Source: Tequatrovirus LF73P3. From it: DNA of 64,000 nucleotides. Position 1 is the stretch's first letter, and the number at the start of each line of letters is the position of its first letter. Where the stretch lies: the sequence record OZ035756.1. One strand, written 5' to 3'. The translations under genes were made by a program, and so were the position numbers. Below are positions 26,437 to 48,582 of this stretch, one piece after another. The notes beneath the pieces are model-generated. The model was not told where the DNA came from. It saw only the letters and a list, made by a program, of their open reading frames with translations, and ran no database searches.

Positions 26437-27423
26437 TTATTTCAGAAGAGTAACCTCAGCGATTTCTTGCCAACCGTTTTTGTCGGTCATAATAAAGTCA
26501 GCAAGATAAAGAGCAGTACGCAGTGAAACATTGCGTAAACGATTAACATTAACTTTCATCCATGATAATGCTTTATAAGTTTCTTCATCAGAAAGACCGC
26601 GCTTTTGCATCATGTCAGTTGAAAGAATAACATCTTCAACCCTGACCATAATTTCTTCATTAGTGTGAACACCCAAATCCAAATAAACCGAGCGGGACAC
26701 TAATGCTTGTAAATGTGGAGCAAGTTTAGTACCACGGTCTAATTCGCGGTCAATGTCAACGTTTGTGATAAAAACAATCGTTCCTTTAAATTCAAACTCA
26801 CGGTCAATGCCTTTTTCTTCTAAGTAAGAAGATGCAGTGCTCCAGCAGACTTTACGGGTCTCTCCAGTGTCCAGAGCAGCTTTTAGAAGATTAAGAATGT
26901 CCATATCAGAGAAAACATCCACATCATCAATCAAAAGGACAGAATTCTCTTCACGATTATTCCAAAGCTGCTCATAAAGACCAATACCAGAGATTTTACC
27001 ATTAATGCTTTTATATTCAATGTATCCGTTATCATTTGCTTTATTTAAAGCTTTATCTAAAGAATACGTTTTACCAATACCTGCTGCGCCAGAGATAATT
27101 AATGAACGAATATTTCCATTAATAATACCATTCGTCATCATTCCCATAACATTAAATCTTTTATTAATGCGGGTTTTCATATCTTCATATGATTCTTTAA
27201 CTTCTTCAACTTTTACACCATCATATGAAATATCTGATTTGTAAACCCAAACACCGCGACGTTTACCGTCAATTTCAACAAAAACTTTACCATCTCCTTG
27301 TGCATCTACCGGAGCATTATCTGGGAACCATTCGCCTAAGAGCTCAAAAGTTCCAGAGATTTCTTTACCGAAGTAGATACCCTTATTGATAGTTACAGTT
27401 TTCATTTTATTCTCCAATTTCAC
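26437..27423 (-). CDS. P-loop NTPase (328 aa)
   Basis: Walker A GAAGIGKT and Walker B-like VLLIDDVD. Confidence 0.55.
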   Translation of the reverse strand: MKLENKMKTVTINKGIYFGKEISGTFELLGEWFPDNAPVDAQGDGKVFVEIDGKRRGVWVYKSDISYDGVKVEEVKESYEDMKTRINKRFNVMGMMTNGIINGNIRSLIISGAAGIGKTYSLDKALNKANDNGYIEYKSINGKISGIGLYEQLWNNREENSVLLIDDVDVFSDMDILNLLKAALDTGETRKVCWSTASSYLEEKGIDREFEFKGTIVFITNVDIDRELDRGTKLAPHLQALVSRSVYLDLGVHTNEEIMVRVEDVILSTDMMQKRGLSDEETYKALSWMKVNVNRLRNVSLRTALYLADFIMTDKNGWQEIAEVTLLK

Positions 27424-27474: not shown

Positions 27475-27738
27475 TTATTTTAATGTTTGCCAAATTTTTA
27501 CTGCTTCGCGACGAGATACTTCTACAGCTCCAAGTTCTACGGCTTTTTGGCGTCGGCGAGCATGTAAGTCATAATGTTTAATGCGTTTATCTTGAAACCA
27601 AGAACGTTTCATTCCTATTGCTTCTGCCATTTTATGAAGCTCTTCAATATCTCCATCAGTGAACATATGACAATTTTTAGTTGGATGACCGCGAAGTTTC
27701 CATCCATGATTCATTAAAACATCTACGTAAACTGTCAT
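27475..27738 (-). CDS. Small conserved phage protein (87 aa), DUF4031-like by recollection
   Basis: MTVYVDVLMNHGW...HMFTD...ELH.MA.AIG pattern; family assignment from memory only. Confidence 0.35.
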   Translation of the reverse strand: MTVYVDVLMNHGWKLRGHPTKNCHMFTDGDIEELHKMAEAIGMKRSWFQDKRIKHYDLHARRRQKAVELGAVEVSRREAVKIWQTLK

Positions 27739-27929
27739 TGATTCTGCTCCAAATATGTTTCTATAATTTTCTGAGCGAGATAAACTGCGTTATCTTCAGT
27801 TGCATCTTCTAAGAAATTTTCAAAATAAGCTGAAATTTCTTCTGTGTCAATCAACTTTTTTACTTCAATTAACGTAGTTTTCATTTTATTCCCCCAAATC
27901 CGTATCAGTTGATAGTTGTATAGTACCAC
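27735..27929 (-). CDS. Hypothetical acidic protein (64 aa)
   Basis: ORF immediately downstream of early promoter at ~27930. Confidence 0.4.
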   Translation of the reverse strand: MVLYNYQLIRIWGNKMKTTLIEVKKLIDTEEISAYFENFLEDATEDNAVYLAQKIIETYLEQNQ

Positions 27930-27951
27930 AGTATGCTTTGGTTGTAAACCG
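27919..27951 (-). promoter_or_regulatory. T4-type early promoter
   Basis: Minus strand GTTTAC-18 nt-TACTAT. Confidence 0.6.
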
Positions 27952-27970
27952 TTTTGTGAAAAAAATTTTG

Positions 27971-27996
27971 AAATAAAAAAGGGGACCTTAGAGGTC
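27971..27996 (-). terminator. Intrinsic terminator
   Basis: Minus strand GGGGACC-UCUAA-GGUCCCC followed by UUUUUU. Confidence 0.7.
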
Positions 27997-28009
27997 CCCT
28001 TGCGTTAGT

Positions 28010-28495
28010 TTATACCATTTCTATTATGTGCATATTCTTTTTGCTGTCAAAATATATGCTTTTAACTGTTAACTCAGAATTAATTGGCAGTAAAAACTCT
28101 CTTTCATAATCTACCATACAAAGATTATCATAAAGTTTGTTAAGCTTATCATCATCAGTTTGACCAGATTCTTCAATTGCGATTAAATTTTCTAAAATGT
28201 CAATCATGGCAGTCGAATAGTCAAAAACGTTTGCATTTTTTAACACTACTAAAACATTAGTCATATAGCGTTCTGCAGCAAACGTTTCAGCTATATGAGA
28301 CTCACTGCTAAAGGAAGTTATTCTTTTAAATTTGATTCTCCTATTAACTTCAAACTTATAAGATAGCACTTCCTCTATTGTAAGTCCTCTAAAAAGTATG
28401 TCTTTAATCTCAAGTTTGTCTTTAATGTAATCATTAACACGCTTATGATTAAAATCATTAATTTTGTTGCCAAGGCATTGCATTAAAATATGCAT
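28010..28495 (-). CDS. Candidate mini ADP-ribosyltransferase (R-S-E type), 161 aa
   Basis: Motif triad in ART-like spacing: LFRG (R36), YSTA (S94-T95), EREFLLP (E131/E133); single-gene unit between promoter and terminator. Confidence 0.4.
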   Translation of the reverse strand: MHILMQCLGNKINDFNHKRVNDYIKDKLEIKDILFRGLTIEEVLSYKFEVNRRIKFKRITSFSSESHIAETFAAERYMTNVLVVLKNANVFDYSTAMIDILENLIAIEESGQTDDDKLNKLYDNLCMVDYEREFLLPINSELTVKSIYFDSKKNMHIIEMV

Positions 28496-28539
28496 TGTAT
28501 TTTCCTCAATTTTTAAAGAACAATTAACTAACTTACAAA

Positions 28540-28574
28540 TATATTATAATATGCTTTGCGGTAGAAGTAAACAA
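28540..28574 (-). promoter_or_regulatory. T4-type early promoter driving the ART-like gene
   Basis: Minus strand GTTTAC-17 nt-TTATAAT. Confidence 0.6.
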
Positions 28575-28600
28575 CTTTGTGAAAAAATTTTGAAATAAAA

Positions 28601-28620
28601 AGGGAGCCCGAAGGCTCCCT
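28601..28620 (-). terminator. Intrinsic terminator
   Basis: Minus strand AGGGAGCC-UUCG-GGCUCCCU followed by UUUUAUUUC. Confidence 0.7.
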
Positions 28621-28621
28621 A

Positions 28622-29635
28622 TCATTTATAATAACTTCGATGGTTTTCAAGATAAACCCTCTCAAGGAAGTCATCCCAGAAACCCATGTCTACTTTTTGC
28701 TGCATACCGTTCTTAGAAGCTTCAATGGATGCTGCTTCTACTTGATCGACCACATCTTCCAAAAACTCTTGAACAGTTTTAAATGGATGTTTACCCAACT
28801 TCACGTCGAGAATAAATGGAGCGTCTTGAAGTGGATAGACTAAGTCACCAGTTTTGTAAATTTCCAATAGTTGGAGTCCACCACGGCAAGCATGACTCAG
28901 AGCTTTCCAGTCAATGCCCTCATTCGCTTCAGCCTTACGAGCACGTTCGCCGTATTCAGCATCAAGTTTATTCAAAGATTGCTTAAGCTCGATAAGAGAA
29001 AGCGTTGTCTGATATTTACGACCCAACACAGTGTAGAACGTTTGTGGACCTGTTTTCTCATGATTATGGAACACCCATTCACAGAATTCGTTCTCTGGAA
29101 GACGATGCTTAATATCTTCAATCTTAGTTCGACGTTGCTTAATGGAACCGTCTTCTTGATAATCAACCCACTGATCAGGGATTTGATTAACTACTTTCAA
29201 TACATCACGTAATGCGGCCAAACGAGAACCCTTAACACCGTATTTAGAAGCTTGCTTGCGAACATATCCTAAGTAGGATTTCATGTTAGTCGTATAAAAA
29301 CGAGAACGATTGTCTTGAATAAACTTCCATACATCAGGCAAATCAGATTTAACTACCAGTTCAGGTGGAGTGTGGAGCATATCCAATGCTACAGTTTCAC
29401 CATCTGCTGCTAATTTAAAGAAATACTTAAGACTGTATAGTTCATGGTCAATATCATCTTTAGTGTTTTTAGATGATGTGTTGTTAGTGTTTTTACTCAT
29501 ATGCTCTTTAACATTTCCGATAAGAATATCACGAGCAGGAGGAACAAAGATTTCTTTAAAATCTACATCAGATTCTGGAGTAGAAGTTCCATAAAGATGA
29601 CTACCAAAATAGCTTTTCATTACTGTTTTCATCAT
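28622..29635 (-). CDS. Minimal nucleotidyltransferase (MNT/ANT-type) with C-terminal helical domain, 337 aa
   Basis: N-terminal signature GSHLYGTSTPESDVDF (GS-x3-G-x5-SD-V-D) plus downstream acidic LDMLH. Confidence 0.6.
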   Translation of the reverse strand: MMKTVMKSYFGSHLYGTSTPESDVDFKEIFVPPARDILIGNVKEHMSKNTNNTSSKNTKDDIDHELYSLKYFFKLAADGETVALDMLHTPPELVVKSDLPDVWKFIQDNRSRFYTTNMKSYLGYVRKQASKYGVKGSRLAALRDVLKVVNQIPDQWVDYQEDGSIKQRRTKIEDIKHRLPENEFCEWVFHNHEKTGPQTFYTVLGRKYQTTLSLIELKQSLNKLDAEYGERARKAEANEGIDWKALSHACRGGLQLLEIYKTGDLVYPLQDAPFILDVKLGKHPFKTVQEFLEDVVDQVEAASIEASKNGMQQKVDMGFWDDFLERVYLENHRSYYK

Positions 29636-30117
29636 TCAGCCTTATATTCAATAACAGGACATACTTTAGCTTTACGCGCTTTTAAAAATTCGACGATAAT
29701 AGATTTCTTGGGTTGAATAGGCTCAAGTCCATTTTTGATTCGTTCTTCGTTTTGTACAATGAGCTCAATTTCTTTATTGAGCTTTCGGTCGTTATATTTG
29801 TCTAACAACCAGGAAGGACCAATTACCGCCCCGACAGCAATAAGAACCATGACCGATAATGCTAAAATGCCTATACCAATTGAAGCTGGAATTAATGTCC
29901 ATAGACTACTAAAGACAAAGAATTTAATTAAAATTTCTTGGCCAATTATTGCAGCACCTGTTAAAGTTGCAAATCCAACAATTGAAACCGCTAATACCGG
30001 GAGAAACGTTTTCCAAAAATAAGCACATAACGTTTTTGGACGATTCCATGTGCTGTTAAATGCCGAGTAAATTTTAAAGTGCCAAGAGTTTTCATTAATA
30101 ATCATAATTATAATCAT
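29632..30117 (-). CDS. Membrane protein (161 aa), translationally coupled to the nucleotidyltransferase
   Basis: Several hydrophobic helices (FLPVLAVSIVGFATLTGAAIIG; IGILALSVMVLIAVGAVIG); stop overlaps NTase start. Confidence 0.5.
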   Translation of the reverse strand: MIIIMIINENSWHFKIYSAFNSTWNRPKTLCAYFWKTFLPVLAVSIVGFATLTGAAIIGQEILIKFFVFSSLWTLIPASIGIGILALSVMVLIAVGAVIGPSWLLDKYNDRKLNKEIELIVQNEERIKNGLEPIQPKKSIIVEFLKARKAKVCPVIEYKAE

Positions 30118-30635
30118 CCTTTCATTGAAGGTGTAACAGTTGTTAAATACTTAATCATAGCTTCAGCTTCTGATTTTGATAATGAAATTTCTCCATTGTT
30201 TTGACGAATAGAAATAAAATCCGGATGACGGTCACCACCAGCTTTTAAAACACACATATAAGTATCAGTTTCATCTTCAATATCTGAAATGATTGAAGCA
30301 GTTCCACATGAATGTGGTTTTTGATAAATCAATACAGCTTTTCTTCCACCGTTTGACTGCTCATAAACTTTTAACACATCAAACAAATCACTTCTTTTAT
30401 CAATAGCTAAGATGTTGTTTTCATCTTCAATGTTAAATCCTTCGGATACTTCATAAAGTGTCACCCATAAATCACCAATATCAATAACAGCGTTCACTTT
30501 TCCATGACTTTCAAGAGCATTACAAATTTTCTTAATTTCATCATAACTCATTTTAATAATATCATCTCCTTGAATAAAGAAGATGTCATTTTTAAATTCA
30601 ACGCGAATTAAACCACTTTCACTTGAAATAAACAT
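30114..30635 (-). CDS. Hypothetical protein (173 aa), weak paralog of upstream gene
   Basis: C-terminus SKSEAEAMIKYLTTVTPSM resembles TKDEAIALKTYLDSVIPTM of the 30642..31199 product. Confidence 0.45.
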   Translation of the reverse strand: MFISSESGLIRVEFKNDIFFIQGDDIIKMSYDEIKKICNALESHGKVNAVIDIGDLWVTLYEVSEGFNIEDENNILAIDKRSDLFDVLKVYEQSNGGRKAVLIYQKPHSCGTASIISDIEDETDTYMCVLKAGGDRHPDFISIRQNNGEISLSKSEAEAMIKYLTTVTPSMKG

Positions 30636-46109: not shown

Positions 46110-46186
46110 TGGTCGAGGCAGTAGGGATCGAACCTACGACCTAGGACTTAGAAGGTCCTTGCTCTTCCTTCTGAGCTATGCCTCGT
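46110..46186 (-). tRNA. tRNA-Arg (anticodon UCU)
   Basis: Manual fold: acceptor CGAGGCA/UGCCUCG, anticodon loop CUUCUAA, T-arm GGUUCGAUCC, encoded CCA. Confidence 0.8.
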
Positions 46187-46188
46187 AG

Positions 46189-46854
46189 TTAAAATTTCAT
46201 TTTTCGACCTTTAAACCATCCTTCTGGAATTGGGTCAGTTTTCTTAATACGTTTAGAAACTTTTTCATCTAATGAATGAATCCACATCATACCAAATTGG
46301 GAATTCTTTTCACCTTTTTGGTGATTATTTTTAGCGTGAATTTCTTTCATTTTATTAATAGTTTCAAGAGTATGATGCTTATTTAAAAATCGGCTATTAT
46401 TTAAAAATTTTTCTTTGTATTCAGGAGTTGACCACAAACGTTTAAATACATTTGAACCATTTTTACGATATTTTTCTTGAAGTAAAATATCATTTTTAAA
46501 ACGTGACTTAAACGATTTAGCTCCTTTTAAACTAGCGTCTTTCTTCTGATTTAGCATCTCAGGAATATTTATATGATCCCATCCACCTTCACCGCCAAGT
46601 TTTAAATTATACACATCAGGTCTATTTAAAAACTCTTCTGTGACAATATTTTTCTCGGCTTCAAGCATAGATTCTTTATCGTCAAAATATTCTAATATTT
46701 CTTTAGAAAAATTTTCTATACCATACCTGTCTTGGGCTCTTTTTAATAATTTACCAGAACCCATATATCCATCATCTAAATTTTCGGTAGAATGCACACC
46801 AATATAAATTTTATTATTAATTTTATTTGTTATTTTATAAAGATAAAAATGCAT
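46189..46854 (-). CDS. segB: GIY-YIG homing endonuclease SegB
   Basis: GIY-YIG module (FYLYKITN...KIYIGVH); lies between tRNA-Arg and the main tRNA cluster as T4 segB does; start set at MHFYLYK to avoid overlapping the adjacent tRNA. Confidence 0.75.
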   Translation of the reverse strand: MHFYLYKITNKINNKIYIGVHSTENLDDGYMGSGKLLKRAQDRYGIENFSKEILEYFDDKESMLEAEKNIVTEEFLNRPDVYNLKLGGEGGWDHINIPEMLNQKKDASLKGAKSFKSRFKNDILLQEKYRKNGSNVFKRLWSTPEYKEKFLNNSRFLNKHHTLETINKMKEIHAKNNHQKGEKNSQFGMMWIHSLDEKVSKRIKKTDPIPEGWFKGRKMKF

Positions 46855-46900
46855 ATCAGTCCCTAATAAAGAACTGAGCGTCTCACGACGAGTCATAAAT

Positions 46901-46987
46901 TGGTGGGGAGTGATGGAGTCGAACCACCCGAGTCGCAATGACAATGGATTTACAGTCCACACCGCTACCTCTACGGGATAACTCCCC
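46901..46987 (-). tRNA. Type II tRNA-like gene, anticodon apparently GUA (Tyr)
   Basis: Manual fold: perfect acceptor GGGGAGU/ACUCCCC, anticodon loop CUGUAAA, long variable arm resembling E. coli tRNA-Tyr, T-arm GGUUCGACUCC, encoded CCA; D-arm pairing ambiguous. Confidence 0.55.
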
Positions 46988-46996
46988 TAATTAATT

Positions 46997-47073
46997 TGGT
47001 GACCCAGACCAGATTTGAACTGGTAACCTTTCCCTTATGAGGGGACTGCTGCTAACCATTGAGCTACAGGGCC
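46997..47073 (-). tRNA. tRNA-Ile (anticodon CAU)
   Basis: Anticodon loop CUCAUAA, T-arm ACCAGUUCAAAUCUGGU, encoded CCA; D-stem weak. Confidence 0.7.
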
Positions 47074-47074
47074 T

Positions 47075-47150
47075 TGGTGCTGATTGACGGAATCGAACCG
47101 CCGACATCCTCATTACAAGTGAGGCGCTCTACCTACTGAGCTAAATCAGC
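47075..47150 (-). tRNA. tRNA-Thr (anticodon UGU)
   Basis: Acceptor GCUGAUU/AAUCAGC, anticodon loop CUUGUAA, T-arm GGUUCGAUUCC, CCA. Confidence 0.85.
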
Positions 47151-47152
47151 AA

Positions 47153-47239
47153 CGGAGGCGATAGGATTTGAACCTATGAGTCGCCGGAGCGACTGCCGGT
47201 TTTCAAGACCGGTGCATTAAACCACTCTGCCACGCCTCC
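47153..47239 (-). tRNA. tRNA-Ser (anticodon UGA), CCA not encoded
   Basis: Begins GGAGGCGUGGCAGAG..., anticodon loop CUUGAAA, long variable arm; matches T4 tRNA-Ser as I recall it. Confidence 0.85.
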
Positions 47240-47241
47240 AG

Positions 47242-47315
47242 TCTCCGCGGCAGGATTTGAACCTGCGACATTCTGCTCCCAAAGCAGACACTCTACCAAA
47301 CTGAGCTACACGGAG
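47242..47315 (-). tRNA. tRNA-Pro (anticodon UGG), CCA not encoded
   Basis: Anticodon stem-loop UCUGC-UUUGGGA-GCAGA; separated by ~2 nt from tRNA-Ser (dimeric precursor arrangement). Confidence 0.8.
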
Positions 47316-47325
47316 TAAATTAAAT

Positions 47326-47399
<74 letters not shown>

Positions 47400-47404
47400 A
47401 AATT

Positions 47405-47491
47405 TGGTGCGAGAAGTGGGACTCGAACCCACAAGGAAATCATTCCGCAGCATTTTAAGTGCTGTGTCTTTACCAATTTGACCATTCTCGC
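47405..47491 (-). tRNA. tRNA-Leu (anticodon UAA)
   Basis: GCGAGAAUGGUCAAAUUGGUAAAG..., anticodon loop ACUUAAAAU region, long variable arm, CCA. Confidence 0.85.
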
Positions 47492-47492
47492 G

Positions 47493-47565
47493 CTGGGAAT
47501 AAAGGACTCGAACCTTTGCATCTAGCAGTCAAAGTGCTATGCCTTACCAACTTGGCTAATTCCCA
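47493..47565 (-). tRNA. tRNA-Gln (anticodon UUG), CCA apparently not encoded
   Basis: Acceptor UGGGAAU/AUUCCCA, anticodon stem-loop UAGCA-CUUUGAC-UGCUA; abuts tRNA-Leu. Confidence 0.8.
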
Positions 47566-48357: not shown

Positions 48358-48582
48358 TTATTCACCTTTAGAAATTTTATCCATAACGATAGCGATTAAA
48401 CCAATTAAAAATGCTACTACAAGTGAAAACACATTTTCTGCTGTAGTTAATAATCCGCATATAAATCCAACAAACATTGAAAAACTAAAAGCAGAAGCAG
48501 AAACTGCAATAGCAACATTTCGAATTAATTCACAACGTTTCATTTTTATTCTCCTCAGTAGTTGATAGGGTAATAATATCAC
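48358..48582 (-). CDS. Small membrane protein (74 aa)
   Basis: Two hydrophobic helices. Confidence 0.4.
   Translation of the reverse strand: MILLPYQLLRRIKMKRCELIRNVAIAVSASAFSFSMFVGFICGLLTTAENVFSLVVAFLIGLIAIVMDKISKGE

Follow-up and report, generated by a model that had tools for sequence, protein, structure and literature searches.

The window analysed here is a stretch of 64,000 nucleotides from Tequatrovirus LF73P3 (sequence record OZ035756.1). On its minus strand, between homologues of the T4 genes nrdC.11 and nrdC.10, it carries a gene for a protein of 161 amino acids (aa) that belongs to the Mod family of R-S-E ADP-ribosyltransferases (ARTs; Pfam PF26816; PHROG 832) and is a paralogue, not an orthologue, of ModA and ModB. 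The gene is under purifying selection and sits in a cassette that is bounded on both sides by promoter-early stem-loop (PeSL) elements and is present in some related phages and absent from others. We put at roughly 0.8 the probability that it is a third, shortened Mod paralogue that is expressed early from this cassette and acts by ADP-ribosylating proteins. In phages that also carry Alt, ModA and ModB, it would be a fourth ART.

Family membership, catalytic residues and predicted fold

Among T4 proteins, the best BLASTP match of the window protein is ModB (30% identity over 159 columns, E 3e-15); ModA is matched as well (28% identity, E 4e-10). PHROG 832, named 'RNA polymerase ADP-ribosylase', matches the protein with an E-value of 5.8e-24, and PF26816 (Mod_ADP_RT) is the precomputed match stored for close homologues that are 53-93% identical to it. 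When 1.84 billion representatives were searched exhaustively with a hidden Markov model (HMM), 30 proteins reached E<=0.001, among them P0005, the representative of the ModB cluster, and the R-S-ExE residues are present in every one of these proteins that was retrieved and aligned. Given this number and the retention of the motifs in those aligned, the Mod family is small and phage-restricted. A word-indexed protein search, even with a profile, found just 3-4 close homologues, and a mixed profile including ModA and ModB was needed to gather 22 sequences for modelling.

Local searches of Pfam-A, NCBIfam and PDB sequences with the single protein gave no ART match. Authentic T4 ModA and ModB likewise score nothing in the local Pfam copy, so that this null is uninformative and an artefact of the age of the library. 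The sole PDB sequence match, to a segment of METTL21A (E 0.52), is marginal and was dismissed as chance. A profile search against PDB sequences produced nothing but a marginal match between the ExE segment and XopAI, and no solved structure of the Mod family was found by sequence. Elsewhere in the window, a weak tblastn match of ModB at positions 48376-48570 (E 0.037) was considered as a second ART and rejected as chance; it falls in a 74-aa hydrophobic open reading frame (ORF), in which the ModA match lies in a different register.

The initial annotation, made from the sequence alone, had called the protein an R-S-E ART on the strength of three motifs: LFRG (R36), YSTA (S94-T95) and EREFLLP (E131/E133). 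The ART identity is borne out by the PHROG 832 match, the BLASTP matches to ModB and ModA, the structural comparisons given below and the conserved residues, and the three motifs stand in the sequence exactly as numbered. The middle one, nevertheless, is not the catalytic element. In an alignment of 53 Mod-family sequences, with which smaller alignments agree, R36, G37, S61, E131 and E133 are invariant (53/53), whereas S94 is found in 13 and T95 in 3 of the 53. The motif serine of the family is S61, in the signature R-x-T-S-F-S (TSFS in the window protein). In the structural model, S61 lies on a beta-strand (60-63) that is followed by a helix (66-76), and S94 lies at the start of a helix. A strand followed by a helix is the canonical place of the 'STS' element in ARTs.

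With the serine reassigned, the spacing changes too. The distances of 58 and 39 residues, which had been likened to those of C3/iota-type toxins, give way to 25 residues from the arginine to the serine and 72 from the serine to the second glutamate. This is the arrangement of ModB (R73, S99, E171/E173; 26 and 74) and ModA (R72, S96, E163/E165; 24 and 69). The form E-x-E, rather than Q-x-E, is the signature of arginine-specific enzymes in this ART clade. R36 of the window protein aligns with R73 of ModB, and the R73A substitution in ModB abolishes both ADP-ribosylation and RNAylation (PMC10468400).

The AF2 (AlphaFold) model, built from 21 sequences, has a mean predicted local distance difference test score (pLDDT) of 92.3 and a predicted template modelling score (pTM) of 0.84. 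It is compact and has no disordered ends, and two helices (residues 93-131) are inserted between the central strand and the ExE motif. A Foldseek comparison with the PDB, a check that the initial annotation had proposed, supports an ART fold for the model, and predicted structures of viral ModA and ModB match it at TMq 0.78-0.86. The split beta-sandwich fold of the Mod family is thus predicted for the window protein.

The ORF at 28010-28495 exists as first described and encodes 161 aa; its strand is minus. Compared with the copies in phages vB_EcoM_ACG-C40 (hereafter ACG-C40) and T2, the ratio of nonsynonymous to synonymous polymorphism (pN/pS) is 0.12-0.15, and the gene is under purifying selection. 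The protein is acidic (isoelectric point, pI, 5.4), as are ModA and ModB. Isoelectric points do not separate ModA-like from ModB-like proteins and give no hint of RNA binding.

A short clade apart from ModA and ModB

ACG-C40 carries intact ModA (200 aa) and ModB (207 aa) genes at the srd-modA-modB locus and, in addition, the short gene between nrdC.11 and nrdC.10. The suggestion that the gene is additional to the known ARTs therefore holds for ModA and ModB, which lie elsewhere in phages that carry it. In a neighbour-joining (NJ) tree, the window protein and its homologues P0001-P0004 (53-93% identical, 158-162 aa once the mis-called start of P0002 is set aside) form a clade of their own, apart from the ModA and ModB clades. 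The sister of this short clade is a group of proteins, P0024-P0028 (175-189 aa), which are single Mod proteins of more distant T4-like phages and, with E-values of 1e-17 to 1e-23, came out of the exhaustive search as the nearest outgroup. Like the window protein, they have shorter N-termini than ModA and ModB, but they are 14-28 residues longer than it, and P0025, the only one with a readable context, is encoded at the canonical soc...mod...dda locus instead of in a cassette of its own.

The window protein is very compact, as had been noted from its length. It lacks about 37 N-terminal and about 9 C-terminal residues of ModA and ModB, and has its arginine at position 36 of 161 instead of behind some 70 residues in a chain of about 200 aa. 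Mod-family members of 148-189 aa exist, and the long N-terminus is a trait of the ModA and ModB orthologue groups, not of the catalytic domain. The gene neither occupies the srd-modA-modB-modA.2 position nor clusters with modA or modB in the tree. It is a paralogue of both, and the GenBank labels 'ModB' and 'modA_2' given to its relatives can be taken at the family level only, since the locus differs, the clade is separate, and ACG-C40 has a separate ModA and ModB.

The short clade keeps the residues V-D-Y directly before E-x-E (V-D-Y-E-[RK]-E). In other R-S-E ARTs, the region before E-x-E contributes to substrate recognition. From this clade-specific stretch, together with the missing N-terminus, it is a reasonable inference that the targets of the short Mod proteins differ from those of ModA and ModB.

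The exact protein is present in NCBI, ENA and Logan, and GenBank, RefSeq and UniProt give its cluster mates, those of T2 and ACG-C40 among them, the names 'ADP-ribosylase', 'RNA polymerase ADP-ribosylase', 'NAD--protein ADP-ribosyltransferase', 'ModB' or 'modA_2'. The novelty implied by the initial annotation is therefore not upheld: the family is already annotated in GenBank and UniProt and in PHROG 832 and PF26816. What the present analysis corrects is the looseness of the orthologue labels, as the protein is neither ModA nor ModB.

Several observations on other Mod genes were made along the way. The modB gene of T2 is frameshifted near residue 135, leaving ORFs of 142 and 42 aa, with the ExE motif out of frame in two independent records (LC348380, L011:3152-3773; PV958097, L017:2091-2712); the short Mod paralogue of T2 is intact. 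Judged from these sequences, T2 may naturally lack functional ModB while keeping the extra short ART. The closest copy of the window gene, in Escherichia phage BW-1 (OR125554.1:147328-147809; 99.4% identity), is in two pieces annotated as two 'RNA polymerase ADP-ribosylase' coding sequences (CDSs), which suggests a frameshift or a sequencing error in the record. In Klebsiella phage kv_tblp5 (L006:1411-2273), a Dmd homologue comes directly after a Mod-family ART. For Klebsiella phages, a pair of this kind, a Mod-like ART with Dmd, was proposed to be toxin-antitoxin-like by Iyer et al. (2022) (PMC9503650). No Dmd-like gene stands beside the ART gene of the window.

The PeSL cassette and its distribution

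Features of the cassette and its neighbours are summarized in Table 1. Read along the minus strand, the nrdC.11 stop codon (28622) is followed by a hairpin, an A/T tract, a promoter, a leader, the ART gene, a second hairpin, the same A/T tract again and the next promoter. The initial annotation had described an insulated unit with its own early promoter and with terminators on both sides, and this description is confirmed: the hairpins lie at 28620-28601 and 28001-27979, and the promoter reads GTTTACT / TATAAT, with the -35 hexamer starting at 28571 and the -10 element ending at 28543. Four terminator-like hairpins were found on both strands of the region, against 0.6 expected. The T4 early-promoter consensus has GTTTAC at -36 to -31 and an A-rich tract in the -40s (PMC1524935), and the PeSL promoter consensus of the T4/PST group is TTTACW-N17-TAYWAT (PMC4122927).

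Table 1. The ART cassette and adjoining features in the window
Feature	Coordinates	Strand	Details
nrdC.11 homologue, RlaP-family (RNA-repair-associated pol-beta type) nucleotidyltransferase	28622-29635	-	Pfam E 3.4e-11
Upstream PeSL stem-loop, putative terminator of nrdC.11	28601..28620	-	AGGGAGCCTTCGGGCTCCCT then T-run; 8 pairs, 6 G-C (terminator scan)
A/T-rich UP-like tract ahead of ART promoter	28573-28600	-	
Predicted T4-type early promoter of ART cassette	28543..28572	-	-35 GTTTACT, 17-nt spacer, -10 TATAAT; promoter scan 10/12 matches
5' untranslated leader	28496..28542	-	Shine-Dalgarno GAGG 8 nt before ATG, read from sequence; transcription start inferred from -10 position
Short Mod-family ADP-ribosyltransferase CDS	28010..28495	-	161 aa, ATG start; motif R36 (LFRG), S61 (TSFS), E131-x-E133 (EREF)
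Downstream PeSL stem-loop, putative terminator of ART gene	27979..28001	-	AAGGGGACCTCTAAGGTCCCCTT then T-run; 10 pairs, 6 G-C (terminator scan)
Downstream PeSL core and predicted early promoter	27920..27978	-	~25-nt tract TTTTATTTCAAAATTTTTTTCACAAA, -35 GTTTACA (27948), extended -10 TGGTACTAT
nrdC.10 homologue, AAA/STAND-like ATPase	26437-27423	-	sub-threshold matches only

PeSL elements and the shuffling that they mediate are known from the work of Arbiol et al. (2010) and of Comeau et al. (2014) (PMC2839356, PMC4122927). In the window, a stem-loop terminator is directly followed by an early promoter on both flanks of the gene. A core of about 25 nt, TTTTATTTCAAAATTTTTT(T)CACAAA, is common to the two flanks, which also come out as a direct-repeat family (D1, 27944-27978 and 28567-28601); the 17-nt centre of the core has exact matches in the window at the two flanks only. 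The promoter of the downstream PeSL would drive the next cassette. The text of Comeau et al. (2014) contains neither 'nrdC' nor 'ADP-ribos', and this locus and cargo are not among the examples found there (PMC4122927).

The cassette is also polymorphic, with the junction inside the element. In T4, nrdC.10 and nrdC.11 are adjacent, with a spacer of 114 bp and no gene between them. The stem-loop in this spacer is identical to that of the upstream flank in the window and continues through the core into the downstream flank's promoter and leader. As far as the sequences can tell, the T4 spacer would be the product expected from recombination between two PeSLs or, conversely, the empty insertion site. 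T2 has the ART cassette alone; in the window and in ACG-C40, a second cassette accompanies it.

The genome had been assumed to be T4. The window is instead from a T2/ACG-C40-like Tequatrovirus, and T4 lacks this gene. The 2.3 kb around the gene are 93-94% identical to those of Tequatrovirus phages such as 215Ecol030PP, vB_EcoM_ACG-C40 and G29, and partly to T2. The gene recurs at >=90% identity in some 43 records from phages of Escherichia, Shigella, Salmonella and Citrobacter (T2, Moon and STML-198 among them), while about 700 records share the surrounding 2.3-kb region at least partly. Homologues occupy no fewer than three genomic contexts. The gene for P0002 is flanked by regA and the DNA polymerase gene. 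That for P0003 follows an RlaP nucleotidyltransferase gene at a distance of two small ORFs, in the same neighbourhood as the window gene, and has a full stem-loop and promoter upstream; P0004 lies in a third neighbourhood, beside Y16F/Y16D-like genes. P0002 and P0003, whose flanks were read, have an early-type promoter in front and a terminator hairpin behind. This patchy distribution is attributed to gain and loss of the ART cassette, which would occur by recombination within the shared core of about 25 nt. The 181-aa call for P0002 (L012:4001-4546) starts at an ATG inside its apparent early promoter (AAAAATGTGTACTTT...TACTATAAT); the true start is probably the methionine of MHILM 24 codons downstream, which gives 157 aa.

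The second PeSL-bounded cassette (27475-27929, minus strand) lies directly downstream of the ART gene and is absent from T2 and T4. It contains a small ORF and an 87-aa DUF4031 protein (Pfam E 1.6e-21); the small ORF probably has 49 aa and begins at the ATG at 27887, in line with the ACG-C40 annotation, rather than being the 64-aa ORF that starts with GTG. The ART cassette itself has no second credible ORF, and a toxin-immunity pair within it was rejected on that ground. Small ORFs over the flanks (28528-28674, and a CDS of 102 nt annotated in T2) span the terminator and promoter and are probably spurious. PADLOC returned no defence-system match for the ART or its neighbours; nrdC.10 and nrdC.11 are conserved T4 ORFs, and neither matches the PADLOC defence models. 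Two genes lie upstream of nrdC.11 (29632-30635, minus strand): one for a predicted membrane protein of 161 aa, which matched no family, and one for a y05I-like putative transcription factor of 173 aa (Pfam T4_y05I_N/C, E 2.7e-33 and 2.1e-23). In T4, the homing endonuclease gene mobD takes the place of these two, another insertion/deletion of the hyperplastic region. Further along the window, nine tRNA genes (46110-47565, minus strand; Arg, Tyr, Met, Thr, Ser, Pro, Gly, Leu, Gln; ARAGORN and Rfam) correspond to the T4-type tRNA region.

Proposed function, alternatives and comparison with known systems

On the reading we favour, unmodified host RNA polymerase would transcribe the gene from its own promoter in the first minutes of infection, and the transcript would end at the terminator of the cassette. 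By analogy with the family, R36 and S61 would hold NAD+ in the R-S-E pocket, with E133 as the catalytic glutamate and E131 as the first glutamate of E-x-E, and ADP-ribose would be moved to one or more arginines of one or more host, possibly phage, proteins. The targets are probably other than the RNA polymerase alpha subunit, which is modified by ModA, and S1, EF-Tu and trigger factor, which are modified by ModB. Three variants of this reading stand side by side: a take-over of housekeeping functions of the kind carried out by ModA and ModB, RNAylation in the manner of ModB, and a role against host defences.

Some points weigh against this reading. The promoters and terminators are called from consensus matches only, and arginine specificity is carried over from the E-x-E rule of other ARTs. 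The shortened N-terminus could interfere with folding partners or with the docking of a substrate, and the fold model is silent on activity. The ACG-C40 and T2 copies, compared with each other, differ by 7.5 nonsynonymous and 0.5 synonymous changes, counts that are too small for interpretation, and constraint is not seen in that pair. Finally, a literature search turned up no paper, and no biochemical or genetic data, on the short Mod paralogue or its clade.

Among the alternatives, the idea that an unrelated small phage protein matches the motifs by chance can be set aside as refuted: S94-T95 is indeed a coincidence, and the local Pfam, NCBIfam and PDB sequence searches lack an ART match, but the Pfam null carries no information, and homology, profile, fold and residue conservation all agree. 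It is also very improbable that the gene is a decaying remnant, either a non-catalytic pseudo-enzyme or a gene being lost. The missing N-terminal residues and the absence of the gene from T4 and most relatives would fit such a remnant, and the split BW-1 copy and the frameshifted T2 modB show that Mod genes can decay; yet the ORF is intact, the five catalytic-motif residues are kept, homologues that are 53-93% identical have the same short architecture, pN/pS is low, the compact fold is confidently predicted, and the gene has its own promoter, Shine-Dalgarno sequence and terminator.

Two further alternatives concern what the enzyme acts on. An accessory ART that inactivates a strain-specific host immunity or toxin protein would explain the patchy distribution of the cassette, and its place on a mobile PeSL cassette in a hyperplastic region, in about 43 records against about 700 that share the region and in at least three contexts, agrees with this. 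Accessory genes of such regions have been proposed to be host-adaptive (PMC4122927), and phage ARTs that disable defence exist, AcrIF11 being an example (PMC12421852). Against such a role stand the lack of a PADLOC match and of a linked partner gene in the cassette, and we hold it to be rather unlikely; it is compatible with the reading we favour, as the chemistry is the same and the target alone differs. Less probable still is ModB-like RNAylation, in which the enzyme would start from NAD-capped RNA and link RNA chains to proteins of the host, going beyond simple ADP-ribosylation. ModB is the closest T4 protein and the sole T4 ART shown to RNAylate efficiently (PMC10468400), and a speculation of Iyer et al. 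has some Mod-like ARTs acting on RNA or through RNAylation (PMC9503650). The window protein, however, falls outside the ModB clade and is only 30% identical to ModB, why ModB alone RNAylates 'is not understood' (PMC10468400), and the acidic pI, shared with ModA and ModB alike, is uninformative.

As a tentative extension of the preferred reading, short Mod may be a functionally distinct third lineage that moves as an early cassette and has a target other than those of ModA and ModB, be it a strain-specific defence protein or RNA via NAD-capped transcripts. If this is true, T2, with modB frameshifted and the short gene intact, would be a natural test case, in which the short enzyme may substitute for ModB or differ measurably from it.

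Alt, ModA and ModB of T4 are the textbook example of how a virus uses ADP-ribosylation to redirect transcription and translation in its host. Short Mod, which classic phages such as T2 have and T4 lacks, provides structure-function studies with a compact catalytic core, which is useful because no solved Mod structure was found in the PDB by sequence search, and is also a simple comparative system for the determinants of target choice and RNAylation. Recent work showed that ModB links entire RNA chains to ribosomal proteins (PMC10468400), and in a review of viral NAD+ systems the 'Mod family of the RSE clade' is discussed solely as a group (PMC9503650). The cassette is, in addition, a clean example of an enzyme gene on a PeSL promoter-terminator unit. 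Since the gene is already catalogued as an ADP-ribosylase, the value of these observations is practical rather than conceptual, and current understanding is unchanged.

Of the known systems, T4 ModB (207 aa) is the nearest. It has equivalent R-S-ExE columns at nearly equal spacing and the same predicted fold, but it differs in the sequence at E-x-E (IVREQE in ModB, VDYERE in the window protein) and in locus (srd-modA-modB-modA.2, compared with the nrdC.10-nrdC.11 hyperplastic region). ModB is expressed from a promoter of the prereplicative period, and the predicted promoter of the window gene agrees with this by consensus match. ModB modifies S1, EF-Tu and trigger factor, and RNAylates S1 and L2. 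T4 ModA (200 aa) shares the catalytic residues, a similar spacing and the family (PHROG 832, PF26816); it is more distant than ModB and differs from the window protein in length, locus and clade in the same way. ModA ADP-ribosylates Arg265 of both RNA polymerase alpha subunits. Both ModA and ModB are toxic. The R-S-E proteins C3 exoenzymes, iota/VIP2/CPILE-a, ExoS, Tre1, HopU1 and XopAI, bacterial ART toxins whose structures are solved, are only 8-20% identical to the window protein in structural alignments. In iota Ia, the motif is R295/S338/E380, with a spacing of about 43 and 42 against 25 and 72 in the window protein, whose two-helix insert is a further difference from these toxins. The window protein does not belong with the C3/iota-like binary toxins, with which it shares the fold and the class of chemistry alone, and unlike the bacterial R-S-E toxins it is neither secreted nor injected but expressed inside the infected cell. 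From published PeSL cassettes, in contrast, the ART cassette shows no essential difference: a G+C-rich stem-loop, a T-run and an early promoter stand on each side of an accessory ORF in a hyperplastic region.

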